Positions 23,244 through 50,244 of a DNA stretch of 64,000 nucleotides are shown here, piece by piece. Made by a program: the position numbers and the translations under genes. The stretch lies in assembly GCA_964598885.1 (NCBI GenBank), contig CAZRES010000004.1, positions 5,545 to 69,544 of the forward strand. Reading direction: 5' to 3'. Every line of letters begins with the position of its first letter. The first letter of the stretch is position 1. The notes under the pieces were generated by a model. It saw only the letters and a program-made list of their open reading frames with translations. It made no database searches and was not told where the DNA came from. This DNA is from an uncultured Desulfobacteraceae bacterium. GTDB lineage: Bacteria; Desulfobacterota; Desulfobacteria; Desulfobacterales; Desulfosalsimonadaceae.

Positions 23244-23319
23244 GAAGTTCCACGACGCCCTTGGTCGTGCGGAACTTCGCCAAGGGATAACATGTTCCAT
23301 CATAACGATATGATGGAAC
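23244..23319. repeat. Cluster of overlapping or alternative hairpins in a non-coding A/T-richer spacer
   Basis: Hairpin A is gaagttccacgac (23244-23256) with gtcgtgcggaacttc (23264-23278), one bulge. Hairpin B, which overlaps A, is cccttgg (23258-23264) with ccaaggg (23280-23286). Hairpin C is gttccatcat (23294-23303) with atgatggaac (23310-23319). Confidence 0.8.
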
Positions 23320-23557
23320 TGTCGGGGGGAAAAAACAGTTTATTTTAGAAGCGGAATTTGTGTTTTTCGGGAGCCGCCATCTGGCAGATGCCGAGGGTGT
23401 CATAAAACAGTTCTTAGAACAACAACTGCCATGATCTATGGGAGTTGGTAAGGGCCTCGTTTATCGAATTACTAACGAAAATTGGTTTTTGGACCAGAGT
23501 GACATAATAAATAATATTGATTTTTCAGTCTATTGTAAAACTAATTAAAATTCGAAC

Positions 23558-23585
23558 TTGACATTCATACGATATTGGTTAAAAT
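23558..23585 (+). promoter_or_regulatory. Putative sigma70-type promoter upstream of the ComEA-like gene
   Basis: The -35 is ttgaca (23558-23563), followed by a 16-nt spacer and a -10 taaaat (23580-23585), in an A/T-rich tract about 105 nt upstream of the ATG. Confidence 0.45.
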
Positions 23586-23690
23586 CCCGGAACATTCACT
23601 GCCCGTGTTCATATCCAAAGTGGGCGTTTTCAGGAGGCGGCATCATCGGTTTTATCAAACTTCATATTTCATATGAAAGGAGAACTTCTT

Positions 23691-24020
23691 ATGAAGAAAT
23701 TGATTAAAATCTCCGTAAGTATCATGCTTTTCGGATTTTTGCTGGCAATGGTCGGCTCTGCATGGGCCGCCGATCATGGAGGTAAGGTCAATATCAATAC
23801 CGCGACACTGGAAGAGCTGACGTCGTTGAAAGGTGTGGGAGAAGCCCTGGCTCAGCGGATTATTGATTATCGAAAGGAATCGGGACCCTTTGCGGACGCC
23901 CAGGATCTGCTCAACGTCAAGGGAATTGGACCCAAAATTCTATCCAATAATTTAGACAAGATTACTATCGGTGATGCCGTTAAAGAAGCTGAAGAACAAG
24001 CAACGGAGGAAGATCAATAA
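23691..24020 (+). CDS. ComEA-family helix-hairpin-helix DNA-binding protein (secreted or periplasmic)
   Basis: The ATG at 23691 follows aaggag. There is a signal peptide ([26 protein letters not shown]), then [51 protein letters not shown], which is a tandem HhH. Confidence 0.85.
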
Positions 24021-24071
24021 TTTCCGGGACTGAGTCAGCCGGATAAACATGGTCGAGATGCCGTTCCTGTC

Positions 24072-24118
24072 GCAACCAAAAAACCCGGGGCAGATGCTGC
24101 CCCGGGTTTTTTGGTTGC
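24072..24118. terminator. Bidirectional intrinsic terminator
   Basis: gcaaccaaaaaacccggggcag / ctgccccgggttttttggttgc is a GC-rich stem flanked by an A-run and a T-run. It lies between the convergent ComEA-like gene (+) and the small Cys-rich ORF (-). Confidence 0.75.
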
Positions 24119-24314
24119 ATGGGAGGATTCTGGGATTAGAAGGTAAACTTCAGCATAAACAGCATTTGCTAACTTTTTTCATCCATGATTTCATTTGCTT
24201 GCATGATTTATAAAAGGGGAAGCGAGGATGTGCCGATAGTGGTGAAAGGACAGACGCCGCCAAAAAGTTCATCTGTCCATACAGTGGTGGGACATACCAT
24301 CTCGCAATGAGCCG

Positions 24315-24494
24315 TCAATAAGTCGAATATCTGCCGGAACAGGAAATTCCCCGGGCCAGAAGTATCCGGATTTTATCCAAAAGTCCGCATTGCTCCGCAC
24401 ACTGAGGCAGACTTTTACTATGGACGCAATTTCTGCAGGGACTCTTGACCAGGTATCCGATTTCAAAATCAAATTTATCGCGTTTAATGATCAT
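24315..24494 (-). CDS. Candidate 59-aa cysteine-rich (zinc-ribbon-like) protein, below the length cut-off of the ORF track
   Basis: My own translation of the minus strand gives MIIKRDKFDFEIGYLVKSPCRNCVHSKSLPQCAEQCGLLDKIRILLARGISCSGRYSTY*. It has six Cys, including CxxC and CxxxC. It overlaps the listed 67-aa ORF (24269..24472) in another frame. It is divergent from the DUF2760/Hsp70 operon. Confidence 0.4.
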   Translation of the reverse strand: MIIKRDKFDFEIGYLVKSPCRNCVHSKSLPQCAEQCGLLDKIRILLARGISCSGRYSTY

Positions 24495-24746: not shown

Positions 24747-25580
24747 ATGAGTGTCGTGAAATCATATTCCAGGCGGATTTTGTTCTGGTGCCTCATATTT
24801 TTCATTATTGTTGCCATGATCGTGATGTTTGCCGGTTATGCGGCATGGCGTTTTCTTTTTTCATCGCTGCCCATGCCGGTACTTTATGAGGCGGCGGCGG
24901 GGAACCCTGATTTTCAGAAGGGATTGGATCAGATCCGGCCCTGGATCGATTATGCCGGACATTTTTTTATTCCATTGACCGGAGGAATTTGTTTGCTGCT
25001 GGCTCTGATTTTCTGGCTGATTCTGCGCCGCTCCATTTCTAACGTCGCGTTTCGGGAGGGAATGGCCGCCGGCAAAGATGCCGGAAAAATAAAGGTGCCC
25101 CCGGATCGCGCCAAACCGAAAAGAGACGCGGCCGAACGTTCGGTACCCGATGATGCCGGTCCTGAAGTCCGGGAATCGGAGGCAGACCGGCAGGCCCGCA
25201 TGCAGCGTCTTTATCTGCATCTGCTTTCCGTGTTTCAACGGGAAGGACGAATGGTGGATTTTTTTACCGAGGATTTAACCCCGTATGATGATGCCCAGAT
25301 CGGGGTGGCGGTACGCAACATTCATGAAAACTGCGCCAAGACCCTTCAGAAATATTTAAAGCCGAAGGCCGTTATTGAAAAACAGGAGGGGGAGGAGATC
25401 CGTGTGCCCAAAAATTTTGATGTGGATGCCATTAAACTGACCGGCAATGTATCCGGTGAGCCGCCTTTTAACGGAATTCTGCGCCACAGGGGATGGCAGG
25501 CCGGCCGGATTGAAGTGCCGGTGCTCAATCCCGGTCATAACCCTCGGATCATCGCCCCGGCAGAGGTGGAAATTTTATAA
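24747..25580 (+). CDS. Membrane protein with a C-terminal DUF2760-like domain
   Basis: 277-aa ORF with two hydrophobic helices (ILFWCLIFFIIVAMIVMFAGYAAW; FFIPLTGGICLLLALIFWLIL) and a charged linker. The C-terminal part is RLYLHLLSVFQREGRMVDFFTEDLTPYDDAQIGVAVRNIHENC...LTGNVSGEPPFNGILRHRGWQA. Confidence 0.75.
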   Translation: MSVVKSYSRRILFWCLIFFIIVAMIVMFAGYAAWRFLFSSLPMPVLYEAAAGNPDFQKGLDQIRPWIDYAGHFFIPLTGGICLLLALIFWLILRRSISNVAFREGMAAGKDAGKIKVPPDRAKPKRDAAERSVPDDAGPEVRESEADRQARMQRLYLHLLSVFQREGRMVDFFTEDLTPYDDAQIGVAVRNIHENCAKTLQKYLKPKAVIEKQEGEEIRVPKNFDVDAIKLTGNVSGEPPFNGILRHRGWQAGRIEVPVLNPGHNPRIIAPAEVEIL

Positions 25581-25604
25581 GTTACATAGTAATGGAGCAG
25601 AGAT

Positions 25605-27422
25605 TTGACTGAGCCTTTTTATATCATCGGAATTGACCTGGGCACCACCAATAGCGTGGTGGCCTACACTCCCATCATTATTAACCCGGAGGTCCCGGAT
25701 AGCTCGGATCGCATTAAAATTTTAGATATTCCTCAGTTTGTGGATGCCGGAGCAATAGAAGAGCGTCCGGTGCTTCCGTCCTATATTTATGCTCCGAGTG
25801 TCCATGAAGCATCGAATGGAGCGTTTTCCCTGCCGTGGGACCCGGAAAACACCATGATCATCGGTGAATATGCCCGGCAGCGCGGGGCAGAAGTTCCGCA
25901 GCGCATGATTGCCTCAGCTAAATCCTGGCTCTGCCATACCATGATCGATCGAAACAAGGCGGTGCTGCCATGGGAGCGTCCCGATGAGGTCCCGGGATTT
26001 TCACCGGTAGAAGCATCGGCCGCGATCCTCGGTCATATCCGCCAGGCCTGGAATTTCCGGATGGCCGGCGGGGATCCAAACCTGAACATGGAACATCAGG
26101 AAATTTTTCTGACCGTGCCCGCTTCTTTTGACGCCGTAGCCAGGGAGCTGACGGTTCGAGCCGCGGAAATGGCCGGGCTGCCGCGTATTACGCTGCTGGA
26201 GGAGCCCCAGGCCGCTTTTTACGCATGGATTGCCTCTTCAGGAGATCAATGGCGGGGAAAAGTCCGCAAAGGGGATTTGGTCATCGTTTGCGACATCGGC
26301 GGCGGCACGGCTGATTTCAGTCTCATCCGGGTTTCCGAGGACAACGGTGAACTGGCCCTGGAGCGGATCGCCGTGGGAGATCACCTTCTGGTGGGCGGCG
26401 ACAATATGGACCTTGCACTGGCGTATCACGTATCCCGCAAAATGGCCGATGCCGGCACCCGTCTGGATTCCTGGCAGATGCGGGGGCTGGTGCAGAACTG
26501 CCGGTCGGCCAAGGAAGTGATGCTGTCTGATGCGGCCGTTTCCGAGTATCCGTTGACCATTCTGGGCCGGGGGAGCAGCCTGATCGGCGGCACGCTGAAA
26601 ACCTCCCTGGCGCCCACCGAGGTCGATACGCTGATGATGGACGGATTTTTCCCGTATTGCCGGTTCGATGAGACGCCCAAAAACGCATCACGGATGGGAC
26701 TCAAGGAAGCCGGGCTTTCCTATGAAGCCGATCCGGCCATCACCCGGCATTTGGCCCGGTTTCTGCACCGGCAGAAATCCGACGCCGATTCGGATGGCAG
26801 CCGTATCCCCACGGCGATACTGTTCAACGGCGGCGTGATGAAGGCTGCCTCTCTCCGGGAACGGATCATCCGCGCCATTGATTCCTGGCGCCCCGCGGGG
26901 TCCGAATCTGCGGTTCGGGAGATTCTCGCCCGGGATACGGATTTAGCCGTGGCAAGAGGCGCCGCCTATTACGGCATGGCCCGCCGCGGTTCCGGCATCC
27001 GGATCCGCGGCGGTCTCGGCAAATCCTATTATATCGGCGTGGCCGCATCCATGCCGGCGGTTCCCGGCATGCCGGCCCCGGTCAAGGCTCTTTGCGTGGC
27101 CCCGTTCGGAATGGAGGAAGGGAGCCACGCCCAAATCCAGGACCGGGAATTTGTTCTGGTGGTGGGCGAACCCGTGCGTTTCGACTTTTTGGGGTCCTCC
27201 GTTCGGAAAACCGACGCCATCGGCGATGTTGTCGAGGACTGGCAGGGAGACATTGGAGAGATCACCACCGTGGAAACCACTCTTGATGGCGAAACCGGCG
27301 GCATCGTCCGGGTAAATATCGAGATCAGCGTAACCGAAATCGGCACCATTGAACTCTGGTGCGCATCCCAGGATGATGAACAACGGTGGAAACTCGAATT
27401 CAACGTGCGGGAACAGGTCTGA
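25605..27422 (+). CDS. Non-canonical Hsp70-family ATPase (short paralogue)
   Basis: 605-aa ORF with a TTG start after ggag. Hsp70/actin-fold motifs are IGIDLGTTNSVVAY, VCDIGGGTADFSLI and LFNGGVMK. It has no DnaK-type substrate-binding domain. Its private C-terminal beta-rich module ends IELWCASQDDEQRWKLEFNVR. Confidence 0.9.
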   Translation: MTEPFYIIGIDLGTTNSVVAYTPIIINPEVPDSSDRIKILDIPQFVDAGAIEERPVLPSYIYAPSVHEASNGAFSLPWDPENTMIIGEYARQRGAEVPQRMIASAKSWLCHTMIDRNKAVLPWERPDEVPGFSPVEASAAILGHIRQAWNFRMAGGDPNLNMEHQEIFLTVPASFDAVARELTVRAAEMAGLPRITLLEEPQAAFYAWIASSGDQWRGKVRKGDLVIVCDIGGGTADFSLIRVSEDNGELALERIAVGDHLLVGGDNMDLALAYHVSRKMADAGTRLDSWQMRGLVQNCRSAKEVMLSDAAVSEYPLTILGRGSSLIGGTLKTSLAPTEVDTLMMDGFFPYCRFDETPKNASRMGLKEAGLSYEADPAITRHLARFLHRQKSDADSDGSRIPTAILFNGGVMKAASLRERIIRAIDSWRPAGSESAVREILARDTDLAVARGAAYYGMARRGSGIRIRGGLGKSYYIGVAASMPAVPGMPAPVKALCVAPFGMEEGSHAQIQDREFVLVVGEPVRFDFLGSSVRKTDAIGDVVEDWQGDIGEITTVETTLDGETGGIVRVNIEISVTEIGTIELWCASQDDEQRWKLEFNVREQV

Positions 27423-27436
27423 CGGGAAGATTCAGC

Positions 27437-30196
27437 ATGGAGGAAAAGCGATACATCATCGGCATCGATCTTGGGACCACCAATTCTGCTGTTTCTTACG
27501 TGGATCTGCATGCCGAAAATACAAAAAAACGGGGCATCCGGCTGTTCAAGATTCCTCAGCTGACCGGTCCGGGGGAATTGAGCGCCCTGTCGGTGTTGCC
27601 GTCCTTTTGCTATCTGCCCGGCGCTTATGATATATCCGAGGCGGCCATTCAACTGCCCTGGGAACATGATGATCCCGGGTTTGTGGGCAGGTTCGCCCGG
27701 GATCACGGTTCCCGCATCCCCGCCCGGCTGGTGGCGTCGGCCAAGAGCTGGCTCTGCCACTCCGGAGCGGACCGGCGGGCCCCCATCCTGCCCTGGGGCT
27801 CGGGGGATGATGTCCGGAAAATTTCACCGGTCCAGGCCACTGCTCTCTATCTGAACCATATCCGGCTGGCATGGAACAGCCGGCAGGGCGATGACGACGC
27901 CCTTTATCTTGAAAACCAGACCATCATCATCACGGTGCCGGCGTCCTTTGATGAAGTGGCCCGCGATCTGACCGTCGAGGCCGCCGGCATGGCGGGGTTG
28001 AAAAATGTGACCCTTCTGGAAGAGCCCCTGGCCGCTTTTTACAGCTGGCTGATCGCCCATGAGACCGATTGGCAGGATCACATCCGGCCCGGCGAATTGG
28101 TGCTGGTTTGCGATGTGGGCGGCGGCACCACGGATTTCACTCTCATTACCCTGGATGAAACCGAAGGCGCGCCCCGTTTTGTCCGGATCGCCGTGGGAGA
28201 CCATCTGATCCTTGGAGGCGACAATATTGATCTGGCCCTGGCCCGGCATGTGGAAAAAGACTTGGCCGGGCCGGCGCCCCTGGCCGGAGATCAGTGGAAA
28301 ACCCTTTGCCACTTGTGCCGGCAGGCTAAGGAAAATATACTCAATTCCGATATCCCCGCCGATACCGTGACTATGATGGGCAAGGGCACGCGCCTGATCG
28401 GCGGGACCCTGAGTGCCAAAATTCGACGGGAGAGCCTTGAAAAAATTGTACTGGACGGGTTTTTTCCTCTGGTAAAGCGCGACAGCGGTATTCCCCCATC
28501 CGCAATCCGCAAGGGGATTTCCGAGTTCGGCCTTCCCTATGCCACGGAACCGGCCATCACCCGGCACATCGGTATATTTCTGGAAAAACACCGGGATGAA
28601 GTACATAATCTGCTGCAAAAGAAGCCGCTTCCCGATTTCATCCTTTTTAACGGCGGCTCATTGAAAGCGACCGTGGTCCAGGAGCGGATCCGGGAGGCCA
28701 TCCGGGCCTGGTTTTCCGAGCCTGACGAACGTCTTCCCAGGGTCCTGAAAAATTCCGATCCGGATCTGGCCGTTGCCCTGGGAGCGGGATACTATGGCCT
28801 GGTCAAGGCGGGGCAGGGGGTGCGCGTGGGCAGCGGCAGCGCCCGGGCCTATTATCTCGGCCTTTCCGGCACTGCGGCTGAAAAGGAAAATCAAGCCATA
28901 TGCCTGGTGGAACGCGGCACCGAGGAAGGAGTGCGGATTCATCTGCCGGACCGCGTGTTTGAGGTGCTCACAAATCAACCGGTTCATTTCGCGCTTTACA
29001 GTTCCAGTTTTCGAAGCGGCGACAAAACCGGAGACCTGATTCCCGTGGACGACACCCTGACGCCTCTTCCGCCGGTGCAGACCGTGATCCAGTTCGGGCA
29101 AAAGGGGGTGAAGACCGCCATTCCCGTACAGATAGAAGCCGAATATACGGAAATGGGTATATTGGCCATCTGGTGCCGGTCTCTGTCCAGTCCGCACCGA
29201 TGGCGGCTTCAGTTCCAACTGCGGAGCGCCGATGCCGATACCGGGGTCCGGGACGCCGAGGTGTTTGAAGCTGATGTGGTGGATAAAGCCGTCTCTTTGC
29301 TTGAACAGGCTTTTTCCGAGCATGCCGACGGGGCGTCGCTGAACCGGATCGTTAAATCCATATCCGGGGTTGTGGGGCGCTCCCGGGAAAAATGGCCGCT
29401 CAGCTTTATCCGGACGCTGGCGGATCAGCTGTTAAGAATGCTTCCCAACCGCCGGTATTCCCCGGAACATGAAATCCGCTGGATGAACCTGACCGGGTAC
29501 TGCTTGCGACCCGGATTCGGCGATGGGCTGGATGAACAGCGAATCCGGCAATTATGGAAGATCTACAAACCGGGTGTTTTGTTCGGCAAAAATCCCCAGG
29601 CCAGCCAGGAATGGTGGATCCTCTGGCGTCGGGTGGCGGGCGGGCTTTCTTCCGGTCAGCAGCGGCAGTTTATCCAGGATGCGCGATCCCGGATTATTCC
29701 GCGAAAAGGAACAAAGATCAAAATCCGGCCCCAGGAACACTATGAGGTCTGGATGGCCGTTGCCAATATGGAACGCCTGGGCGTAAGGGATAAAATCGAG
29801 TTCGGACGGCAGCTGTTAAAAACCATTCAGCCCCGGAAGATTATTTTGCAACTGGTCTGGTCTCTATCGCGGATCGGGGCCAGGGACCTGCTTTACGGTC
29901 CGGTGGACCGAGTGGTGCCGTCTTCGGAAGCGGCGGAATGGGCGAACCGGCTCATGGAACTGGAGCCGCGCAACCCGATTCCCGTGGGCAATGCGCTGGT
30001 TCAAATGACGCGAAAGACCGGGGATCGCGCCCGGGATATGGATTCAAAGACCATTGATCGCGTGTCGGTTTGGCTGGAACAGCACCAGATGACCGATAAG
30101 ATAAGGTTTCTGACCATGGTGATTCCCATGGAGCGTCAGGACGAAACCCTGATGTTCGGGGAGGAACTTCCTTCCGGAATCACCCTCAAACAATAA
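27437..30196 (+). CDS. Non-canonical Hsp70-family ATPase (long paralogue with a helical C-terminal extension of about 320 aa)
   Basis: The internal ATG at 27437 gives MEEKRYIIGIDLGTTNSAVSYV. Other motifs are VCDVGGGTTDFTLI and LFNGGSLK. The module homologous to the preceding gene ends LAIWCRSLSSPHRWRLQFQLR. It is followed by a W/R/L-rich helical tail. Confidence 0.9.
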   Translation: MEEKRYIIGIDLGTTNSAVSYVDLHAENTKKRGIRLFKIPQLTGPGELSALSVLPSFCYLPGAYDISEAAIQLPWEHDDPGFVGRFARDHGSRIPARLVASAKSWLCHSGADRRAPILPWGSGDDVRKISPVQATALYLNHIRLAWNSRQGDDDALYLENQTIIITVPASFDEVARDLTVEAAGMAGLKNVTLLEEPLAAFYSWLIAHETDWQDHIRPGELVLVCDVGGGTTDFTLITLDETEGAPRFVRIAVGDHLILGGDNIDLALARHVEKDLAGPAPLAGDQWKTLCHLCRQAKENILNSDIPADTVTMMGKGTRLIGGTLSAKIRRESLEKIVLDGFFPLVKRDSGIPPSAIRKGISEFGLPYATEPAITRHIGIFLEKHRDEVHNLLQKKPLPDFILFNGGSLKATVVQERIREAIRAWFSEPDERLPRVLKNSDPDLAVALGAGYYGLVKAGQGVRVGSGSARAYYLGLSGTAAEKENQAICLVERGTEEGVRIHLPDRVFEVLTNQPVHFALYSSSFRSGDKTGDLIPVDDTLTPLPPVQTVIQFGQKGVKTAIPVQIEAEYTEMGILAIWCRSLSSPHRWRLQFQLRSADADTGVRDAEVFEADVVDKAVSLLEQAFSEHADGASLNRIVKSISGVVGRSREKWPLSFIRTLADQLLRMLPNRRYSPEHEIRWMNLTGYCLRPGFGDGLDEQRIRQLWKIYKPGVLFGKNPQASQEWWILWRRVAGGLSSGQQRQFIQDARSRIIPRKGTKIKIRPQEHYEVWMAVANMERLGVRDKIEFGRQLLKTIQPRKIILQLVWSLSRIGARDLLYGPVDRVVPSSEAAEWANRLMELEPRNPIPVGNALVQMTRKTGDRARDMDSKTIDRVSVWLEQHQMTDKIRFLTMVIPMERQDETLMFGEELPSGITLKQ

Positions 30197-39943: not shown

Positions 39944-40930
<987 letters not shown>

Positions 40931-41155
40931 TTACACTGAAACCGTTTCGGCAAGTCAATAAATATTTTGAAAACGCATGTTCGGGTTTATCTGCCCGAAC
41001 TGTGCGGCATTTCAAAGGATGCGGATAAATACGGAACTTGACATTTGGACCGGTTGGAAATAGAGATTAGAACAATTACCATAGAATTGAGTATTTTTCA
41101 CCGAATCCACCAGCGGATGGCGCACCATGTCTCGACATCATGCGATAATGTTTAA

Positions 41156-43843
41156 ATGAAACCGGAGAAATCAAAAAAAGCGATGTTCGGCGGGTTTTTC
41201 GGCGACAGGACCATGGCGAGGGATTTGACCGCCAGCCTGGTATTGATGGTGATCATGGTTTCCCTGATGACCATATGTGCCAGTTATCTTTATTTATTGC
41301 GCCAGGAAGAACGCCGCCTGGAGCAACTGGCCGAAGAATATCTGCTTTATCTGACCGACAGTCTGGAGCTTCCGCTCTGGACGTTGGATTATGACAGCGT
41401 CGCCAAGATTGCTGATTCCTATTTTGCCAATAATCTGGTGGCGAATCTGAAAATAACCGAACAGCATTATAAATCGCCCCGGGACTTTACCGTTCAGGTG
41501 CTGTTTTCCAAGTCCAAGTCGCCGGGAAAAGACAATGTTGTGGCGGCTTCCGAAGTTCGTCATGAAGGCCGAAGTATCGGCCATGTCGAGATCGGGTTGA
41601 CGCGCCGCGTGTATCAGGAGAATCTTAAACAGCTGCTGCAATCCAGTTTTTTAACCCTGCTTCTGATTATTTTATCATTGGTTCTGGTAACCAGTATTTT
41701 TCTGCGGTTATTCATGAAAAAACCCCTGGACGTTCTGATGCAGGGGATTCAACAGATTTCCATGGGAAAATATGATTATCGGTTTCCGCCCGCCAAACAG
41801 AAAGAAATTCGGTTGATCGTCTCCAATTTTATGGAAATGGCCGGCCAAATACGCCGCCGGGAAACAACGCTGGCGGCACTGAATCGTCAATTGGAAGTCG
41901 AAATCCGGGAGCGCCGAAAAGTCGAAGATGCCATTCGCGGCAACGAGGCCCAGCTCAGAGCCATTTTCGAATCTTCGGTGGACGGGATCCTTGTGGTGGA
42001 CAATTATCGAAACATCATTAATGCCAATAAACGGGTTTATCAGCTTTTGGGACTCCCGGATGAATTGCGGCATCACCGCTCCGAGGCGGACCTGATCGAG
42101 TTCCTGGCAGATCAGGTGAAAAATCCGGATGATTTTAAAACAAATACGGAAGCTTTGTATGCAACCGATTTGATACGGCTGGATGAAATATTTTTCAGGA
42201 ACGGCCAGGTGTTCGAACGATTTTCATGCCCCTTGAAGCAATCCGGCGCTATTATCGGCCGGGTCTGGAATTTTCGGGATGTCACCGACCGGAAACGGTC
42301 CATGCGGGCCTTGCGGGACAGTGAGGAGCGTTTTCGGCAATTGTCGGATGCCGCCCTGGAAGCCATTACTATCCACGACAACGGCGTCATTCTCCAAGTC
42401 AATCAACAGTTTTTGAAAATGTTCGGATACAACCGAAGGGAAGTGCTCGGAAAACGACAATTTTCGGATATTGTGGCCCCGGCGTTTCGGGATGAGCTGC
42501 CTATCAAAAATATCGCCGATATGGGGTTTCTGGAAGTCCAAGCCCTTCGAAAGGACGGGAACCGTTTCCCTGTGGTCATACGCAATCGCAGCATGACGTA
42601 TTATGAGAAAAATGTGGTTGTTTCCGTTATCCGTGATATTTCCGACCGGAAAGCCGCCGAGAAGGAAACCCGGATCCTGCGGGAAAAACTGGCCCTGTCG
42701 AAAAAAATGGAAGCTCTCGGCCTTTTAGCCGGCGGCGTGGCCCATGACCTGAACAACATTCTTTCCGGAATCGTCAGCTATCCGGAACTGCTGCTGATGA
42801 AACCGAACCTGGATGAAAAAACCCGCAAAGCGCTAAGGACCATTCAGGAATCCGGAGAACGGGCCGCTGCCGTGGTCAATGACCTGACCACCATTTCCAG
42901 GGGGGTGGCCTCTAACCGGGAAGCGTTGAACATCAACAATGTGGTCAGGGAATATCTGATTTCGCCGGAATTGCAAAAACTTAAAACGCATCATCCGGAC
43001 GTTAGAATCAAAACGGCTCTCGACCCGGAGCTGTTTAATATCGTCGGTTCGCGGCTTCATATCCGTAAAAGTCTGATGAATCTGGTGATCAATGCAGCCG
43101 AGGCGGTGGAGAAACAGGGGAAAATCGTGATATCCACCAGTAACTGCTATCTGGATAAACCATTAGCGGGTTACAGTGACGTCCAGATGGGAGAATATGC
43201 TTTGCTATCGGTTGCGGACAACGGTCCGGGCATTACCACGGAGGAAATTGGCAGGATCTTCGAGCCGTTTTACACCCGGAAGGTCATGGGCCGCAGCGGT
43301 ACGGGCCTCGGGCTGACCGTGGTATGGAACACCCTGCAGGATCACGGCGGCTATATCAATGTGATCAACCATCAACAAGGCACCCGATTTGACCTTTATT
43401 TTCCGATCACCCGCGAAAGCGTCGGTGATAGCGCATCCCGATTACCTCCGCAAGCTTTCCAGGGCCGGGGAGAAACGATTCTGGTAGTGGATGACGAGCA
43501 GAACCAGCGGGAGATCGCCTCACAGATGTTGACGGCATTAGGCTATAAGGCGGTGGCGGTTGCCAATGGCGACGAAGCTCTGGATTATGTGGCAAAACAG
43601 CCGGTGGATCTGATTTTGCTCGATATGATCATGCCGGCGTCTATGAGCGGACTGGAGACCTATCAACGCATTGTGCAGCAGTATCCCGGACAAAGGGCCG
43701 TGATCGCCAGTGGATTTTCCGTGACCGAAGACGTGGCAGCGGCTCAAAAGGCCGGAGCGGGCGAGTTTGTAAAGAAACCCTATAGCATCGAAAAGTTGGG
43801 AAGCGCCGTCAGAAAAGAACTGTCACGGAATGTGCCTGCATAA
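41156..43843 (+). CDS. Hybrid sensor histidine kinase / response regulator (TM - periplasmic region - TM - HAMP - 2x PAS - HisKA - HATPase - REC)
   Basis: 895-aa ORF. It has two hydrophobic segments, PAS-like blocks (LRAIFESSVDGILVVD; FRQLSDAALEAITIHD), the H-box GGVAHDLNNILSGI, G-boxes DNGPGI / GTGLGL, and a receiver ILVVDDE...DLILLDMIMP...KKP. Confidence 0.9.
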   Translation: MKPEKSKKAMFGGFFGDRTMARDLTASLVLMVIMVSLMTICASYLYLLRQEERRLEQLAEEYLLYLTDSLELPLWTLDYDSVAKIADSYFANNLVANLKITEQHYKSPRDFTVQVLFSKSKSPGKDNVVAASEVRHEGRSIGHVEIGLTRRVYQENLKQLLQSSFLTLLLIILSLVLVTSIFLRLFMKKPLDVLMQGIQQISMGKYDYRFPPAKQKEIRLIVSNFMEMAGQIRRRETTLAALNRQLEVEIRERRKVEDAIRGNEAQLRAIFESSVDGILVVDNYRNIINANKRVYQLLGLPDELRHHRSEADLIEFLADQVKNPDDFKTNTEALYATDLIRLDEIFFRNGQVFERFSCPLKQSGAIIGRVWNFRDVTDRKRSMRALRDSEERFRQLSDAALEAITIHDNGVILQVNQQFLKMFGYNRREVLGKRQFSDIVAPAFRDELPIKNIADMGFLEVQALRKDGNRFPVVIRNRSMTYYEKNVVVSVIRDISDRKAAEKETRILREKLALSKKMEALGLLAGGVAHDLNNILSGIVSYPELLLMKPNLDEKTRKALRTIQESGERAAAVVNDLTTISRGVASNREALNINNVVREYLISPELQKLKTHHPDVRIKTALDPELFNIVGSRLHIRKSLMNLVINAAEAVEKQGKIVISTSNCYLDKPLAGYSDVQMGEYALLSVADNGPGITTEEIGRIFEPFYTRKVMGRSGTGLGLTVVWNTLQDHGGYINVINHQQGTRFDLYFPITRESVGDSASRLPPQAFQGRGETILVVDDEQNQREIASQMLTALGYKAVAVANGDEALDYVAKQPVDLILLDMIMPASMSGLETYQRIVQQYPGQRAVIASGFSVTEDVAAAQKAGAGEFVKKPYSIEKLGSAVRKELSRNVPA

Positions 43844-43980
43844 CCAAGTGATAAAAATTTCTTGAGATAATCGATCATAAACGGTAAACAATTAAAATAT
43901 CCAAAAGATTGTATGTACGTGACGATTATTTTTGGAGATGTTCCATCACCTTCGATTCTGCGATAAATTCAAGGCAAAAA

Positions 43981-44898
43981 ATGGATTTAATAGGGAAAAT
44001 CAAGTTGGCTTTTAAAGAAGCGGAGATTTATCGCCGCCAGGGCCTGCTTGATGAAGCTCTGGATAAATATAAAGTCATCGAAGCACAGATCAAAGCCAAC
44101 CGCAATATTCGGCAACGGGGAGCTTTACTGAAAAAAATCGCTTTTATAATCGACGAACTGAATCAGAAGCTCAAGCGCAGCAAAGTCCCCGATCCTCCGC
44201 CAAAGGTTTCGGAAGATGCCCAGGCGCTGATGAAAGACATGTTTACTTTCGATGACCCGGAAATCAAGGGGTCATCGTTGCTGGGAGGCGCCATTGCATT
44301 GGCCAAATTCGGTCAATATGAAAAAGCCATAGAGGAGTTCAACCGGCTGCTGGAATATGAAAAATTTCGGGTGGAAGCGGCCAAAAATATCCTGTGGTGC
44401 TGGATGCAACAGAAATATTTGGATTACGCTGTTTCGTTGTTTCAGAAATGGCAGAAAATGCAGTTTTTTGAGCCCAACGAGGTAGAATTGCTGCGGGAAT
44501 ATTTTCAGGAAATGTTGACCGCCGCCGGCATTCAACGCGATATCGGCGGGGTTGCCCTCCAGAAAACCATTGAACCGGATTCGGAAATCAGTGATGACGA
44601 GATCCTTGATATTTCCGCCACCCGCTTTACCCTTCCCCGGGGAGGCCGAGAGGGCGAGTCAGTGGAATTCGAGGTCAGTTTTCAGTCAGGAAAATACATC
44701 CAATTTATTATCCCCAAAAAAGAAAAGGAGTTGATCAACGGGCTGAAGCCGGGGGACATGCTCAAAGATATTGTGTTTTATTCACCGGTGGCGATTTTTT
44801 CGGGCATCGGGTTTCTGTCTACCAAAAAGGCGATCGAGGCGGGGCCTAAACGGGGGGATTACAGTTTTTCCATTAAAATTATTGATATTAAATCATAA
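43981..44898 (+). CDS. TPR-like helical protein with a beta-rich C-terminal domain (function unknown)
   Basis: The internal ATG at 43981 gives MDLIGKIKLAFKEAEIYRRQGLLDEALDKYK. A second TPR-like unit is GGAIALAKFGQYEKAIEEFNRLLEY. The C-terminal ~100 aa (FTLPRGGREGESVEFEVSF...YSFSIKIIDI) looks like a beta-barrel but lacks a canonical PilZ RxxxR/DxSxxG motif. Confidence 0.6.
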   Translation: MDLIGKIKLAFKEAEIYRRQGLLDEALDKYKVIEAQIKANRNIRQRGALLKKIAFIIDELNQKLKRSKVPDPPPKVSEDAQALMKDMFTFDDPEIKGSSLLGGAIALAKFGQYEKAIEEFNRLLEYEKFRVEAAKNILWCWMQQKYLDYAVSLFQKWQKMQFFEPNEVELLREYFQEMLTAAGIQRDIGGVALQKTIEPDSEISDDEILDISATRFTLPRGGREGESVEFEVSFQSGKYIQFIIPKKEKELINGLKPGDMLKDIVFYSPVAIFSGIGFLSTKKAIEAGPKRGDYSFSIKIIDIKS

Positions 44899-44958
44899 TT
44901 GACGGTCTCATAAAAACACATCGGGATCAGCCCGCGCGGTCAAGGGAGATGGATTGTA

Positions 44959-45576
44959 ATGGCGGTCATTAATTTGAAGAACCGGCAGATTGAGTGCAAA
45001 CTCGTTTATTACGGACCCGGTCGAAGCGGAAAGACCACCAACCTGGAATATATCAACAGAAATTTTACCAAGCAGGTGGCCGGAAAGATGATATCCATCG
45101 ATACGGAAGGCGACCGGACTCTCTTTTTTGACTTTCTGCCCATCGGGCTGGGCAAGGTCAGGGGATGCGATGTTCGTGTTCAGCTCTATACCGTACCGGG
45201 ACAGGTGAAATATCGCGCCACCCGCGAGTTGGTTTTACGGGGCGCGGACGGGATTATTTTTGTTGCGGATTCCCTGACGGTTCGACGGGAAAAAAATATG
45301 ATGTCATTAAAGGATCTGCATGAGAATCTGAAAAAACTTGGAATGGATATCCGTAAAATTCCGTTGGTGCTCCAATATAACAAGCGCGATCTGGGAAAAA
45401 CGGGTTTGCCGATCATGAGTGTTGAGAAGATGGAGCGTGAACTCAATCGTCAATTGAAAGTCCCGTCATTTCCCGCCAGTGCGTTAAATGGCCAGGGTGT
45501 GGGAACCACATTGACGCAGACCATCAAGTTGATCTTGCAGTATCTTCAAAAAGAATTCAAGTGGGCGAGCGGGTAA
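44959..45576 (+). CDS. MglA-family Ras-like small GTPase
   Basis: 205-aa ORF with KLVYYGPGRSGKTTNL (P-loop), DRTLFFDFLP, LYTVPGQV (MglA-type switch II), QYNKRDL (NKxD) and PASAL. The stop shares one nucleotide with the next ATG (TAATG at 45574-45578). Confidence 0.88.
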   Translation: MAVINLKNRQIECKLVYYGPGRSGKTTNLEYINRNFTKQVAGKMISIDTEGDRTLFFDFLPIGLGKVRGCDVRVQLYTVPGQVKYRATRELVLRGADGIIFVADSLTVRREKNMMSLKDLHENLKKLGMDIRKIPLVLQYNKRDLGKTGLPIMSVEKMERELNRQLKVPSFPASALNGQGVGTTLTQTIKLILQYLQKEFKWASG

Positions 45577-46751
45577 TGAACAAATCAAACATCGTATTAA
45601 AAGGAAGCCTGAGTTTCATCAATCTGGGCGAATTGTTGCAGATCCTCGGCGGGAACACGGCTACGGGCATTCTTAAGCTGACGAGTCTGTATGCGGTCAA
45701 TCCTGGATATATCTACATGGAAGAAGGCAATCCCGTTAATGCGGAAAATGCCGAACTGCAGGGACAGGACGCGCTCAATTCTCTTTTCGGGTGGATGGAT
45801 GCGCAGTTTGAATTCATCGCCGAATCGGTGTCTTCCCAGAAATTGATTAAAAAGAATCGCATGGAATTGATTTTAGACGGATTGCGCATGGTCGACGATG
45901 GCGCCGTGGAAAAACTGGGCCGCGCAAATGTTCCGCAGCAGACTCATCTGGTCACAAACGATGAATCCGAACTTCCGGTGGTCCGCGGTCCCCTGATCGA
46001 CTATATATACGTGGTGGATGAAGAAGAATTTGCCAACGGCAAGGAGATCGTTATCCAGGAAAAATACGGCAACTGGCTCTGGGTGATATTAAAGGGAACC
46101 GTGGAAGTGATCCGCCTGATGCCCGAAGGCGTTGCCCGGATCGTCCGGCTGGGAGAAGGAGCTTTTGTCGGCAGTCTTGAATCCATCGCCGAAAGAGGAT
46201 ATATGCGAAACGCCACGGTTATGGCGGTGGAACGGGTGCAATTGGGCGTTCTTGATTTTGTGCGTATTTACCGAGAGTTCGTGAATTTGTCGGAACAACT
46301 CAAAGCCCTCCTGCTCTCTCTTGACAAACGATTTAAGCAGATCACCACCAATTGCGCGGATGCCCTGATGAACCATGTGCATGCGGCCGATATCAAAGAG
46401 CTGACCCCGTTTATCACCGATAAACAAAACGAGGAAAAGGTATTTCAAATTACCGCAGGACAGGCCAAGATCGTCCGCAGGGATGGCAAACAGCTGATCG
46501 AGTTATGCCGGTTATCAACAGGCGATGTGATCGGCGACGTCCCTTTTTTGAGAATTTCCCATGAGCCATTTTCCGCGGAAGTTTATGTGGATGATTCCTT
46601 CAAGACGGCCGACATCGATCTGGCCGTTATCAAAGAGGAATATGATTGTCTTTCCGCTACGCTGATGAACATGGTACAACATACCGTAACCTGTACATCC
46701 GTGACAACTCAGCGGATCATTGACATATATAAAAAATATGCCGATGATTAA
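45576..46751 (+). CDS. DUF4388-like N-terminal domain protein with one or two cyclic-nucleotide-binding-like (CAP effector) domains
   Basis: MNKSNIVLKGSLSFINLGELLQILGGNTATGILKL shows the DUF4388 pattern. The beta-roll-like segment GNWLWVILKGTVEVIRL...LGEGAFVGSLESIAERGYMRNATVMA resembles the FGE...RSAT cNMP motif. A second, more degenerate copy is STGDVIGDVPFL...FSAEVYV. Confidence 0.65.
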   Translation: MNKSNIVLKGSLSFINLGELLQILGGNTATGILKLTSLYAVNPGYIYMEEGNPVNAENAELQGQDALNSLFGWMDAQFEFIAESVSSQKLIKKNRMELILDGLRMVDDGAVEKLGRANVPQQTHLVTNDESELPVVRGPLIDYIYVVDEEEFANGKEIVIQEKYGNWLWVILKGTVEVIRLMPEGVARIVRLGEGAFVGSLESIAERGYMRNATVMAVERVQLGVLDFVRIYREFVNLSEQLKALLLSLDKRFKQITTNCADALMNHVHAADIKELTPFITDKQNEEKVFQITAGQAKIVRRDGKQLIELCRLSTGDVIGDVPFLRISHEPFSAEVYVDDSFKTADIDLAVIKEEYDCLSATLMNMVQHTVTCTSVTTQRIIDIYKKYADD

Positions 46752-46863
46752 CCGGACGGCCATTTCGGCGACGTCGGCGACCTGCGTGTTCCCGGTGGGC
46801 TGAAATTTTGAGATATGGGGTTTCGTCAGTACGGATCTTATTTAATCGATAAGGAGCCTGGCA

Positions 46864-47211
46864 ATGACTGATAACAAGCGGAAGCATGAGCGGTATGATT
46901 CGTTAAATTTGTTGACGTATGTGTGCGTGGATACGGATGGCAAGGCCTGGACCCAGGGAATGGGGCGGACATTGGATATCAGTGAAAGCGGGCTTCGACT
47001 GGAGACCCATGAACCCATCGATACGAAGTATGTAATGCTTCTCTCCCTCGGCATTGAAGATGAGGTTGTTGACGTAAAGGGAAAAGTCGTTTACTGCAAC
47101 CGCGGGGATGAAGGAAAGTTTGAATCCGGTATTTTATTTACGCATCCCAGACCCGATGACATGGTGATACTGAAGAGATATATCCAGGCCTTTGAAAAAC
47201 AATACGGATAA
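46864..47211 (+). CDS. Stand-alone PilZ-domain protein (predicted c-di-GMP receptor)
   Basis: 115-aa ORF with the canonical PilZ motifs RKHER (RxxxR) and DISESG (DxSxxG). Confidence 0.85.
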   Translation: MTDNKRKHERYDSLNLLTYVCVDTDGKAWTQGMGRTLDISESGLRLETHEPIDTKYVMLLSLGIEDEVVDVKGKVVYCNRGDEGKFESGILFTHPRPDDMVILKRYIQAFEKQYG

Positions 47212-47284
47212 TTTCCTGCCGCAGAAGATGGCGGTCGGGAGCACATGATAAAAACCTAACGCATGATAATGAAATGGAAGGAAG

Positions 47285-48187
47285 ATGAAAGACCCTGTTG
47301 CTGTTTATGAAACCGATTTTCCGGAATTGCCGTTGGTAAAGCGCGGAAAGGTACGGGACCTTTACGACCTGGGGGATGCTTTTCTGATGGTCGCCACGGA
47401 CCGTATTTCCGCTTTTGACGTGATTATGCCCAATCCCATTCCCCAGAAAGGGGAAATCCTGACCCAGATATCGTTGTTCTGGTTTGATCGCATGGCGGAA
47501 AGTGTTCCCAACCATTTGATCTCGAGTAATGTCAATGAATATCCCGACGTGTGCCGGCCCTATGCGGATGCGTTGCGGGGCCGGAGTATGCTGGTGCGCA
47601 AAGCCAAGCCCCTGCCCGTGGAATGCGTGGTCCGCGGTTATATCTCGGGTTCCGGTTGGCAGTCCTATCGGGAAAACGGCACGGTCTGCGGCATCATCTT
47701 GCCTCCGGGTCTGAAGGAATCCGACCAACTTCCCGAACCTCTGTTTACGCCGTCCACCAAGGAAGAATTCGGCGCCCATGATATTAATATCGATTATGAT
47801 GAAGTGGTGCGCCTGATCGGCGCCGATTCCGCTGAAAAGGTCCGGGATCTGAGCATCGCGCTTTACCGCCAAGGCGCGGCATATGCTGAAACCAAAGGGA
47901 TCATCATCGCTGATACCAAATTTGAATTCGGTGTTTATGATGATCAGTTGATTCTCATCGATGAAGTTTTGACTCCGGATTCCTCGCGATTCTGGCCGAA
48001 AGACCGCTATCAGCCCGGCGGTTCCCAGGAAAGCTTCGACAAGCAGTACCTGAGGGATTATCTGGTTTCCATTAAATGGAACAAAACTCCTCCCGCGCCC
48101 GAACTTCCGGTCGAGGTTATTGAAAATACCCGTCGGAAATACCGGGAAGCGCTTTCTTTGTTGACCGGAAATCCGGATGCGATTTAA
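47285..48187 (+). CDS. purC: Phosphoribosylaminoimidazole-succinocarboxamide (SAICAR) synthase
   Basis: 300-aa ORF with [23 protein letters not shown] and [10 protein letters not shown]. Confidence 0.95.
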
Positions 48188-49163
48188 CTTCCGCGACGTT
48201 TCCCTTGACCAAATCAATGTGGAAGACGAACGGTTTCGGATTTCAACACCAGAACCCACGGATGATCTGGCAGAGGCGGTTAACAGGATCGGGATGCTCT
48301 ACCCCCCGATCCTTTTTGAAACAGCATCCGATGATTATGTGATTGTTGCCGGATTTAAGCGTATCGGAGTTTGTCGCCGGCTTGGATGGAATACCATCGG
48401 TGCCCGGATCCTCCCCGGCGATACGCCCGCATGCGACTGCCTTCACGTTTCCATCGCCGATAACACGTTTTATCGGTCTTTAAATCTTATTGAACAATCT
48501 GCCGCGGTTTCAAAACTTGCAGCCTTTTACCGCAACGACGCAGAATTGAGCCGGGCTGCCGGGCTGCTCGGCATGGCGGTGAGCCCGGAGCTGGCGGCTA
48601 AACTGAAACGGATTTCCATGCTGTCGGCGGCGCTGCGGCAATCCATCCTGTCCGGGTCGATTTCCTTAAACATCGCCCTTGCCATTGACACGATTGATTT
48701 TCCTCTGGCGGAGAGGTTGATCGCGGTCTTTGATCAACTCCGGCCCACTTTAAACCAGCAGAAGCAGATGGTGGAATGGGTGAAAGACCTTGTGCGCCGG
48801 GATCCGTCTGCAACTGACGATCTGTTGGCGGATGAAGCCTGCCGGAAGATGTTATCGGATAACGATCTTGATCGGCCGCGTAAAATCCGGTGGTTGATGG
48901 ATGCGCTTAAACGCAGGCGATTTCCCGTTATATCGGCGTTTGTCCAAGAGTATCGGCAACACATGCAATCCCTGCGTCTGCCCCCCGGCGTGGAAATGGT
49001 CACCCCGGAAGATTTTGAAGCGATCCGACATCGGCTGGTACTGGACTTTCATTCGTTAGCCGAATTTGTAAATCAAATTGACCAATTGTATGCTCTTTCC
49101 CATGATGTTAATTTTCAGGCCTTGATTGATAAAGATGTTGCGGTTCACGACCCTTTATATTGA
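48177..49163 (+). CDS. ParB N-terminal (sulfiredoxin-like) domain protein, not a canonical partition ParB
   Basis: 328-aa ORF. The N-terminal region [16 protein letters not shown]...[15 protein letters not shown]...[18 protein letters not shown] matches the ParB-box layout (GxxR..A motif region). The remainder is helical. The ATG overlaps the purC 3' end by 11 nt. Confidence 0.7.
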
Positions 49164-50244
49164 CCGTGATGTCGAGGATTTACCGGAAACCGGTTTGATT
49201 CGCGACAACTTGAAAGTCCCGTGTCGGTTGGTGGACGGCGCGGAGCAAGTATATGGCGATCTTGCCCGGCATTCGGATCCCGTGGGCGCGGCCAAAAAGA
49301 TCCTTTATCTCACCCGCAACAGGGGCGCTTTTGTCCGGGACTGCCCCGGCACCAGCCATTATACCTGCTGCGGATACCGGATTCTGCATATCGGGACGTT
49401 CTGCACCATGGATTGCGCCTATTGCATCTTGCAATCCTATTTTCATCCCCCTGTGCTTCAGTACTTCGTCAATCACGCGGATCTGTTTTCGGCCCTGGAT
49501 CTTTTGTTTGCCGAAAACAGCACCACCCGCATCGGTACCGGCGAGTTTACCGACAGTCTGATCTGGGATGATCTGCTGCCGTTTTCCCCGCGGCTGATCC
49601 GACGTTTCGCCCAACAGAACCGGACGGTGCTTGAATTGAAAACCAAAACCATCAACATCGATCATCTGCTGCCGGTCCGGCATCATCGAAAAACCATTCT
49701 GGCCTGGTCGCTGAACACCGAACCCATTATCCGCCATGAAGAAAGACGGACCACCCCGCTGAATTCCCGCCTGAATGCTGCTGCCCGGGCGCAGGCACAC
49801 GGATATCCGCTGGCGTTTCATTTTGATCCCATTATTATTTACCCGGAGTGTGAAACACACTATGCAGAGGTGATTGACCGTCTTTTTCAATTTGTTGACC
49901 CCGGCAACATTGTCTGGATCAGTCTGGGCACCTTGCGGTTTATGCCCGCTCTGAAATCGGTCATGGAAAAGCGGTTCCCGCAAACCGCCATCGCCTGCGG
50001 GGAGTTTATCAAAGGACTGGACGGCAAGATGCGCTATTTCAAGCCTTTGCGTATTGCCCTGTATCGCCGGATCATCGAGCGGATCCGGCGGTACGCGCCG
50101 GAGGTCACGATATATTTTTGTATGGAAGACGATGAGGTGTGGCGAAAGTCCATGGGGTTTGTTCCTTCCGAACGGGGCGGGCTTTTCCGCATGCTGGATC
50201 AAAGCGCCGTGAAGACTTGCGGCGTGACAGTTGACGCGGTATGA
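49126..50244 (+). CDS. Radical-SAM enzyme of the spore-photoproduct-lyase (SplB, COG1533-like) family
   Basis: 372-aa ORF with a CTMDCAYC (CxxxCxxC) radical-SAM cluster motif. It also has GTGEFTDS and the SplB-like layout ([17 protein letters not shown]-terminus). It overlaps the upstream ParB-like gene by 29-38 nt, depending on whether the start is 49126 or 49135. Confidence 0.78.
   Translation: MIKMLRFTTLYIDRDVEDLPETGLIRDNLKVPCRLVDGAEQVYGDLARHSDPVGAAKKILYLTRNRGAFVRDCPGTSHYTCCGYRILHIGTFCTMDCAYCILQSYFHPPVLQYFVNHADLFSALDLLFAENSTTRIGTGEFTDSLIWDDLLPFSPRLIRRFAQQNRTVLELKTKTINIDHLLPVRHHRKTILAWSLNTEPIIRHEERRTTPLNSRLNAAARAQAHGYPLAFHFDPIIIYPECETHYAEVIDRLFQFVDPGNIVWISLGTLRFMPALKSVMEKRFPQTAIACGEFIKGLDGKMRYFKPLRIALYRRIIERIRRYAPEVTIYFCMEDDEVWRKSMGFVPSERGGLFRMLDQSAVKTCGVTVDAV

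Follow-up and report, generated by a model that had tools for sequence, protein, structure and literature searches.

We describe a cassette of four genes, built around the small GTPase MglA, in an uncultured Desulfobacteraceae bacterium. The cassette occupies positions 43981-47211 of a 64,000-nucleotide (nt) stretch of DNA (GCA_964598885.1, contig CAZRES010000004.1, positions 5,545-69,544), which is referred to below as the window. Besides MglA, it encodes a TPR protein with a C-terminal beta-barrel (the TPR-barrel protein), a protein that joins a PATAN domain to two domains of the cyclic nucleotide-binding type (the PATAN-cNMP protein), and a stand-alone PilZ protein. We lean toward the explanation that these genes form one functional module, an MglB-less derivative of PATAN/TPR-barrel-associated MglA polarity modules that would take its input from second messengers. 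The evidence comes from conserved catalytic residues in the GTPase, linkage of the genes across related genomes, a lack of MglB nearby, and the fact that the TPR-barrel protein has homologues in MglB-containing clusters.

MglA is a model for bacterial Ras-like spatial switches, and its cycle is understood almost wholly through MglB, a Roadblock GTPase-activating protein (GAP). The cassette GTPases make up a large, Desulfobacterales-wide clade of MglAs that keep all residues for stimulated hydrolysis and never have mglB beside them. This raises the question of how an MglA that is competent at G21, R53, and Q82 turns off without a neighboring MglB. It also raises the questions of whether cyclic nucleotides or cyclic di-GMP (c-di-GMP) feed into a small-GTPase polarity switch and of what the PATAN domain binds.

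The GTPase and the local absence of MglB

An initial annotation of this DNA had attributed a full MglA signature to the GTPase, and our results bear this out. The P loop, GPGRSGKT (G19-T26), fits GxxxxGK[T/S] and is followed by DRTLFFDFLP, which contains R53 and T54, by TVPGQ at residues 78-82, and by NKRD at residues 141-144. The hallmarks of Group-1 MglAs are an intrinsic arginine finger beside the G2 threonine, TVPGQ in place of DxxGQ, and a G4 motif of the form [NT]KxD (PMC4316618). The 205-amino-acid (aa) protein aligns from end to end with the 195-aa MglA of Myxococcus xanthus at 53% identity. Furthermore, it matched the M. xanthus MglA structures (6h17, 5ymx) at E=4e-59 and Thermus MglA (3t12) at E=4e-51, while matches to Arf and Ras proteins stood at about 1e-6, the next best after the MglAs being an Arl protein (2e-6). 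Judged by its sequence, the protein is a bona fide Group-1 MglA with its catalytic residues intact.

Conservation among relatives bears on whether this GTPase cycles at all. In 67/67 cassette MglAs, G19, G21, R22, G24, K25, T26, D52, R53, T54, D58, TVPGQ, and NKRD were invariant, as was the beta2 strand TLFFDFLP. The MglA of Bdellovibrio has been proposed to be a static, mostly GTP-bound landmark that lacks a GAP and marks a single pole, and one could imagine the same here: MglB is locally absent in both cases, and the cassette provides a TPR protein and a candidate c-di-GMP receptor as partners, comparable to the Bd2492/CdgA hub (PMC3983030). Yet the Bdellovibrio case rests on Ser21, a residue predicted to lock the protein with GTP and absent from all 67 cassette MglAs. 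Because G21, R53, and Q82 are kept in all of them, unlike the Bdellovibrio Ser21, selection appears to maintain stimulated hydrolysis, and we regard a static landmark as distinctly improbable.

The initial annotation had seen no Roadblock/LC7 gene near mglA, and deeper searches agree. We compared the window with orthologous loci from 79 species-representative genomes of Desulfobacteraceae, Desulfococcaceae, and Desulfosalsimonadaceae and of both Desulfonema species; the relatives that carry the cassette belong to the Desulfobacterales and include the gliding Desulfonema, which leaves the earlier label of an apparently non-gliding anaerobe uncertain. When the 101 window open reading frames (ORFs) of 95-260 aa were scanned against Pfam, Robl_LC7 was not among the best 25 of the 31 families matched (the best 25 all at E<1e-4, the other six between 1e-4 and 1e-2). 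A phmmer search with M. xanthus MglB (a query identical to PDB 6h5b_B) gave a best E of 5.9 over all stop-to-stop ORFs of the window and of 1.3 over the 79 orthologous loci with their +-10 kb flanks. A profile of 44 MglB sequences did little better, its best E being 3.1 for the window and 0.55 for the 79 loci, and the precomputed Pfam calls of four related contigs (L081-L084) included no Robl_LC7 in the flanking 10 kb. A coupled MglA/MglB system would have a Roadblock/LC7 gene no more than four genes away from mglA, and these searches turned up none. To check the sensitivity of the MglB probe, we ran it on 80 metagenome loci retrieved by means of an MglA alignment, where it detected an immediately adjacent MglB for 57 non-cassette MglAs, at 20-250 bits. 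A Roadblock domain hidden within the cassette was ruled out as well, since profiles of PATAN-N, TPR-N, TPR-C, PilZ, and the full PATAN-cNMP protein each reached less than 4% probability in hhalign against the 44-sequence MglB profile. The absence of MglB is therefore a property of the window and its orthologous loci. The earlier description of a GTPase without an MglB partner stands in this local sense; it is not shown for whole genomes, and MglB-MglA pairs are common in the order.

The cassette MglAs nevertheless stand apart from MglB-coupled ones. All 16 metagenome MglAs that were at least 63% identical to that of the window lay in the cassette without MglB, whereas all 57 MglB-adjacent MglAs were at most 59% identical to it. 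In a neighbor-joining tree of 88 sequences, built without support values, the cassette MglAs were monophyletic and included no MglB-coupled member. Just three positions set the clade apart: G63, Q165, and G182. G63 is beside L64 in the beta2-beta3 loop, and G182 corresponds in the alignment to M. xanthus F177, where helix alpha5 begins. In M. xanthus, this loop and alpha5 form an allosteric pocket for the C-terminal helix of MglB and perhaps for the Glu-rich helix of RomR (PMC6785124). We infer that the partner at this pocket may have changed in the cassette clade.

How, then, would hydrolysis be stimulated? Since MglB-MglA pairs are common in the order, the leading ordinary answer is that an MglB encoded elsewhere (for example, in a canonical pair with a 201-aa MglA) acts in trans and that the cassette is an extra effector or input branch. 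We consider this quite possible, if somewhat short of probable. In the cassette MglAs, G21, R53, Q82, and the beta2 strand are invariant; in M. xanthus, it is mainly through that strand that Roadblock is contacted (PMC6785124), and co-occurrence with MglB is the general pattern for MglAs that have G21 (PMC3983030). Both Desulfobacterales and Thermodesulfobacteriota are rich in MglB-MglA pairs (2787 MglB homologues), and Desulfatibacillum is recorded as carrying one coupled and one orphan MglA (PMC4316618). The small number of positions, three, by which the clade differs from MglB-coupled MglAs fits an MglB in trans too, although two of them, G63 and G182, fall in the very elements that receive the MglB C-terminal helix (PMC6785124). 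Some genomes are also harder to reconcile with it. The 204-aa MglA Dole_2371 of Desulfococcus oleovorans Hxd3, apparently a previously cataloged member of the cassette clade, has a PATAN neighbor and no coupled MglB and is the only MglA-family entry for its genome (PMC4316618). Likewise, none of the whole-genome shotgun (WGS) prefixes of five MglB-bearing assemblies, a very small sample, equaled that of a cassette genome. If MglB does act in trans, the cassette would be an ordinary additional input branch of modest interest.

Cassette proteins, linkage, and MglB-containing relatives

The features of the cassette and the gene upstream of it are collected in Table 1; all ORFs lie where the initial annotation had placed them. 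A GGGAGA Shine-Dalgarno sequence lies 8 nt 5' of the mglA start. The mglA stop codon, TAA (45574-45576), lends its last A to the ATG of the PATAN-cNMP gene (45576-45578), just as had been noted at first, indicating that the two genes are coupled in translation. Operon structure for the cassette as a whole is suggested by gene spacing.

Table 1. Features of the MglA cassette and its upstream neighbor (window coordinates).
Feature	Position	Strand	Basis or domain layout
HAMP-PAS-PAS-HisKA-HATPase-REC hybrid histidine kinase	41156..43843	+	Pfam
TPR-barrel protein, 305 aa	43981..44898	+	ORF; TPR-like helices ~1-181, linker, C-terminal split beta-barrel ~213-304 (predicted)
mglA, Group-1 MglA small GTPase (by sequence), 205 aa	44959..45576	+	Match to M. 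xanthus MglA structures
TAATG stop/start overlap, mglA / PATAN-cNMP gene	45574..45578	+	Sequence
PATAN-cNMP protein, 391 aa	45576..46751	+	PATAN ~9-108; cNMP-type domains ~150-260 and ~265-385
Stand-alone PilZ protein, 115 aa	46864..47211	+	Pfam PilZ, c-di-GMP-binding motifs

Linkage among the genes is extensive. The complete set of four was recovered from 47 of the 60 evaluable Desulfobacterales genomes. Within the set, mglA lay directly 5' of the PATAN-cNMP gene in 64/72 evaluable loci, with -4 to +13 nt from stop to start in 55 of 63 orthologous loci, and PilZ lay directly 3' of the PATAN-cNMP gene in 69/74 loci. The TPR-barrel gene was present at 54 of the 65 loci where it could be evaluated. 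Two further loci (L095, L096) carry the unit in the permuted order PilZ-TPR-MglA-PATANcNMP and in an unrelated genomic context; at L096, for instance, the surroundings encode an FAD oxidoreductase, LEA_2, SnoaL, a trypsin-like peptidase, and AP_endonuc_2.

The TPR-barrel protein starts at the ATG at 43981, because its homologues are also 305 aa long. The first annotation had called it TPR-like with a beta-rich C-terminal domain, and structural prediction is compatible with this description: AlphaFold2 models nine paired helices, a linker, and a beta domain (predicted local distance difference test, pLDDT, 80.8 for the whole protein and 91.6 for the C-domain by itself). Pfam TPR_16 scored 26.6 bits, below its cut-off of 32.7, and 14/50 members of the family matched TPR families. 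With the whole protein as query, the top Foldseek matches were the TPR proteins RapH, BamD, MamA, and LapB (E=1.5e-3 to 5e-3, with low TM-scores). For the C-domain, the best PDB matches were the PilZ proteins MotI/DgrA and MrkH (TM 0.60-0.64, root mean square deviation 2.7-2.8, weak E>=5e-3), and PNPOx-like split barrels scored as well against it. On predicted fold alone, we call the C-domain a PilZ-like split barrel. A PilZ domain detectable by sequence was ruled out. The C-domain has neither RxxxR nor DxSxxG, the 305-aa protein gave no Pfam PilZ match, and hhalign aligned 15 columns of the C-domain with the cassette PilZ family at a probability of 0.9%. When 1.84 billion representative proteins were searched exhaustively with a profile, the matches were confined to a single small family of 240 relatives, nearly all of the same architecture, and included no ordinary PilZ proteins. 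Among the relatives are two fusions, PATAN+TPR+barrel (P0422) and PilZ+TPR+barrel (P0466). In a further protein from the representative library (P0467, 424 aa), the C-terminal barrel is fused to an AAA_22-type ATPase domain instead of the TPR region.

The PATAN-cNMP protein had been described as DUF4388-like with CAP-type cyclic nucleotide-binding domains, and both assignments exceed the Pfam gathering cut-offs. DUF4388/PatA_N (PF14332) scored 58.4 bits against a cut-off of 25 (9.3e-16, profile positions 1-120 of 122), and cNMP_binding (PF00027) scored 56.6 bits against 27.5 (2.6e-15) over two stretches. In addition, a profile search matched structures of PKA-RI, PKG, and CAP at 2e-10 to 2e-5, while the PATAN domain found no relative of solved structure by sequence profile search. 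More than 1000 homologues carry both Pfam domains. PF14332 was found on all but one, a truncated sequence, of the 120 homologues listed, and every homologue with an organism name came from the Desulfobacterales or Thermodesulfobacteriota. We compared the two cNMP-type domains with the canonical phosphate-binding cassette, Gly-Glu ... Arg-[ST]-Ala. The first, the one that aligns with PKA-RI, PKG, and CAP, reads G-S ... R-[S/N]-A-T, with an Arg that is ~98% conserved and Ser in place of the ribose-contacting Glu. The second reads IG.IPFL.TSHEP.SA, in which HEP.SA is invariant and neither the canonical Glu nor the Arg is found.

The last protein of the cassette had been taken for a canonical stand-alone PilZ protein, and Pfam (PF07238, 44.5 bits against a gathering cut-off of 22.5, 2e-11) concurs. 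Its motifs are RKHER (R6xxxR10) and DISESG (D38-I-S-E-S-G43), and its family is conserved at R6 (70/70), R10 (70/70), [N/D]38 (70/70), S40 (57/70), and G43 (70/70). Because the RxxxR and [N/D]xSxxG motifs are conserved, the 115-aa protein is a canonical candidate receptor for c-di-GMP.

Companions of the same kinds also neighbor MglB-MglA pairs elsewhere. PATAN ORFs lay within 6 kb of 23/57 MglB-coupled MglAs, in line with published neighborhoods (PMC4316618). Two loci (L111, L112) carry REC-PATAN, a TPR-barrel homologue, a second REC-PATAN, MglB, and MglA, and two others (L170, L171) have the order PilZ-MglB-MglA. In a Thermodesulfobacteriota metagenome-assembled genome (L169), the genes run MglB-MglA-X-REC/PATAN-REC-TPRbarrel-REC-Hpt-REC/PATAN-REC/PATAN-Hpt-CheW, and its TPR-barrel protein aligns with that of the window from end to end (31% identity, E=2e-49). 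Since TPR-barrel, PATAN, and PilZ proteins all neighbor MglB-MglA in such loci, the cassette re-uses MglA companions that it shares with MglB-containing systems. Our reading is that the cassette may have lost MglB, that its cNMP-type domains stand where relatives have REC on response regulators served by a Che-type pathway, and that a PilZ of the c-di-GMP type has joined. The TPR-barrel family thus emerges as a recurrent, so far undescribed companion of MglA in MglB-containing and MglB-less systems alike.

Several features of these MglB-containing loci deserve separate mention. The L169 genes (JBHPCZ010000012.1, 4026-12418) form a Che-type cluster, with three REC-PATAN proteins, two Hpt proteins, CheW, and the TPR-barrel homologue around MglB-MglA; the layout parallels Frz-MglA control in Myxococcus, with PATAN response regulators instead. 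In several Thermodesulfobacteriota loci, a protein of ~219-232 aa without a Pfam match is encoded directly 3' of a canonical 201-aa MglA (9069-9767 in L165, 5121-5816 in L169, and starting at 2103 in L170 and at 2099 in L171). The 231-aa protein in this position at L169 has no similarity to PATAN-cNMP. The stand-alone PilZ genes directly 5' of MglB-MglA (340-738 in L170 and 329-697 in L171) encode proteins that are only remote relatives of the cassette PilZ (26% identity, E=0.007).

Could the adjacency of the four genes be an accident of housekeeping synteny, with no functional relation among them? The flanks do leave room for such a view, as uvrB, uvrC, mdh, purC, a parB-like gene, and a gene resembling that for spore photoproduct lyase (SPL-like) are syntenic across the same 79 loci. 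Our argument for a functional link therefore draws on other observations, namely the tight spacing of mglA and the PATAN-cNMP gene, the permuted unit, the fusions, and the modular pattern of losses described below. An accident of synteny is contradicted by the recurrence of the four genes, reordered and in an unrelated context, at L095 and L096, by the L169 cluster, and by the fusion proteins that tie PATAN and PilZ to the TPR-barrel. The conserved overlap of stop and start and the presence of all three companions beside MglB-MglA elsewhere speak against it as well, and we give it scarcely any credence.

A possible second-messenger-gated polarity module

If the four genes do form a module, it would be a small-GTPase switch for polarity or localization whose inputs are nucleotide second messengers, not phosphotransfer. 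MglA-GTP would dock on the TPR-barrel protein, by analogy with two characterized effectors. In M. xanthus, MglA-GTP binds the TPR effector SgmX (PMC7519303). In Bdellovibrio, MglA binds the TPR protein Bd2492, which in turn binds the c-di-GMP receptor CdgA (PMC3983030), an account that the initial annotation had rendered accurately. The PATAN-cNMP protein could serve as a ligand-gated adaptor that connects to, for example, an ATPase of the PilB type, given that PATAN-REC regulators bind the pilus ATPase PilB1 in Synechocystis (bioRxiv 10.1101/2021.06.11.447907). PilZ might add a c-di-GMP input to the complex, much as PixA and PlpA, two PilZ proteins of M. xanthus, influence MglA polarity in that species (PMC8316039). 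The output would be where or when a polar envelope machine is active, with type IV pili as the likeliest candidate.

A number of observations weigh against this explanation. Plain synteny is weak evidence for it, because the housekeeping flanks are syntenic too. The parts of the cassette are separable: six genomes, from Desulfosalsimonas and relatives (L034, L037, L038, L039, L043, L049), have lost the TPR-barrel protein and MglA and keep PATAN-cNMP and PilZ between mdh and purC, and in four others MglA persists in the absence of the TPR protein. Neither the window nor the loci contain genes for pili or motility. The fusions P0422 and P0466 are each known from one cluster representative, and faulty gene calling could have produced them. 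Binding of cAMP or cGMP is uncertain, because both cNMP-type domains depart from the canonical phosphate-binding cassette. Finally, the contacts between the proteins, their ligands, the output machine, and the stimulation of hydrolysis are all things that we infer.

The six genomes without cassette MglA also inform a more radical possibility, that a non-Roadblock protein of the cassette replaces MglB and that second messengers gate hydrolysis or exchange by MglA directly. The PATAN-cNMP protein would be the likeliest regulator, possibly together with the TPR-barrel and PilZ proteins. It is encoded by a gene that overlaps or nearly abuts mglA, no cassette locus has MglB and yet the GAP-dependent catalytic residues are invariant, and G63 and G182 alter elements of the allosteric pocket (PMC6785124). 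In the six genomes, however, the PATAN domain was tested for relaxation and none was seen. That PATAN-cNMP persists unrelaxed after the loss of MglA weakens the case for a cassette-encoded replacement. PATAN is found beside MglB operons as well (23/57) and is therefore no general substitute for MglB; moreover, no cassette domain has profile similarity to MglB (<4% in hhalign), and there is no biochemical precedent. Although we think such a replacement unlikely, it would, if true, constitute a direct second-messenger-gated small-GTPase cycle in bacteria.

Surrounding genes and comparison with known systems

On the + strand, the genes follow the order hybrid kinase, TPR-barrel, mglA, PATAN-cNMP, PilZ, purC, ParB-like, and SPL-like radical-SAM gene. 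A PAS-PAS hybrid kinase had been placed directly upstream of the cassette. Pfam confirms its domains, but it lies upstream in just 10/50 evaluable loci, which rules it out as a core member and makes it a lineage-specific neighbor outside the conserved set. The block had also been called A/T-rich, correctly so. Its GC content is 47.9% against 54.0% for the window, in the lowest 2% among 3.2-kb windows. Because the cassette is likewise below its flanks in 33/33 other genomes, low GC is a trait of the gene family, and horizontal transfer was rejected as its cause. Scans of positions 40800-48400 for promoters (13 against 9.1+-3.4 expected) and terminators (9 against 10.4+-3.3 expected) stayed within chance, and an Rfam scan of 40900-47400 at E<=1 returned no riboswitch or other RNA family.

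Elsewhere in the window, several genes merit a brief record. Overlapping genes at 48177-50244 encode a 328-aa ParB_N-like protein and a 372-aa radical-SAM protein that resembles spore photoproduct lyase; this conserved pair follows purC in nearly all 79 orthologous loci of what is a non-sporulating lineage. Antisense to purC, a 373-aa ORF (47138-48259, - strand) is almost certainly a shadow ORF of a high-GC coding region. Three genes at 24747-30196 code for a DUF2760 protein and two Hsp70-like proteins, one of 605 aa and one of 936 aa whose C-domain is the 'DnaK-related' DUF3731. Immediately upstream of this trio, GC content reaches its minimum for the window (23-25 kb, 43-45% GC); that patch includes, at 23056-24472, a gene for a ComEA-like helix-hairpin-helix protein (23673-24020) and small ORFs without a family match. 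Finally, at 3509-7032 (- strand), a 791-aa protein made almost wholly of TPR repeats, unrelated to the cassette TPR-barrel protein, adjoins a 383-aa protein with a weak PspB-like stretch.

Parts of this picture are already known. Orphan MglAs number 59 of the 449 cataloged by Wuichet and Sogaard-Andersen 2014 (PMC4316618), MglA/MglB-PATAN neighborhoods were reported by Makarova 2006, as cited in PMC4316618, and Dole_2371 is one apparent member of the clade. The initial annotation could map the gene combination to no described system. This is right for the cassette as such: in our literature searches we found no description of the four-gene cassette, of PATAN-cNMP as an MglA partner, of the TPR-barrel family, or of a monophyletic MglB-less MglA clade that retains G21. 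It is too broad for MglA-PATAN neighborhoods and orphan MglAs, which had been cataloged (PMC4316618).

Compared with the MglA/MglB-SgmX system of M. xanthus, the cassette has the same kind of GTPase, a Group-1 MglA that carries TVPGQ and its own Arg finger, and a TPR-type partner, here encoded alongside (PMC7519303, PMC6785124). PilZ proteins, PlpA and PixA in that organism, feed MglA polarity (PMC8316039), and a PilZ protein is part of the cassette. The systems differ in that the cassette lacks mglB beside mglA and encodes its partners together. Its TPR partner has 305 aa with a beta-barrel, whereas SgmX has ~1000 aa, and its inputs would be of the cNMP and PilZ types, whereas M. xanthus uses the Frz chemosensory pathway. 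The Bdellovibrio hub shares with the cassette an MglA without MglB, a TPR protein, and a c-di-GMP receptor, a candidate one in the cassette (PMC3983030). There, however, MglA carries S21 and by prediction stays locked with GTP (PMC3983030), in contrast to the invariant G21 of the cassette. Moreover, the Bdellovibrio partners are encoded away from mglA, the receptor is a degenerate GGDEF protein and no PilZ, and there is no PATAN-cNMP protein.

Two other systems share single elements with the cassette. Like the cassette MglA, SofG of M. xanthus belongs to Group 1 of the MglA family and has no MglB coupled to it (PMC4316618). SofG (MXAN_6703) has 298 aa with extensions, whereas the cassette MglA, a single domain of 205 aa that lacks SofG-type N- and C-terminal extensions (~300 aa), is much closer to MglA proper. 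The cyanobacterial PatA-type (PATAN-REC) proteins PixG, PixE, and TaxP, which bind PilB1, fuse PATAN to a signal-receiving domain in the spatial control of a polar machine (bioRxiv 10.1101/2021.06.11.447907). The cassette PATAN is instead N-terminal and joined to cNMP-type domains, not REC, and the cyanobacterial systems that have been studied have no role for MglA.

The PATAN-MglB-MglA clusters (PMC4316618; L169, L111, L112) also have features in common with the cassette. Both combine a Group-1 MglA with a PATAN protein; L169, L111, and L112 add a homologous TPR-barrel protein, and L170 and L171 a PilZ neighbor. In contrast to these clusters, which have MglB and REC-PATAN with its phosphorylation input, the cassette is without MglB and its PATAN protein has two cNMP-type domains, and the MglAs of the two fall into separate clades.

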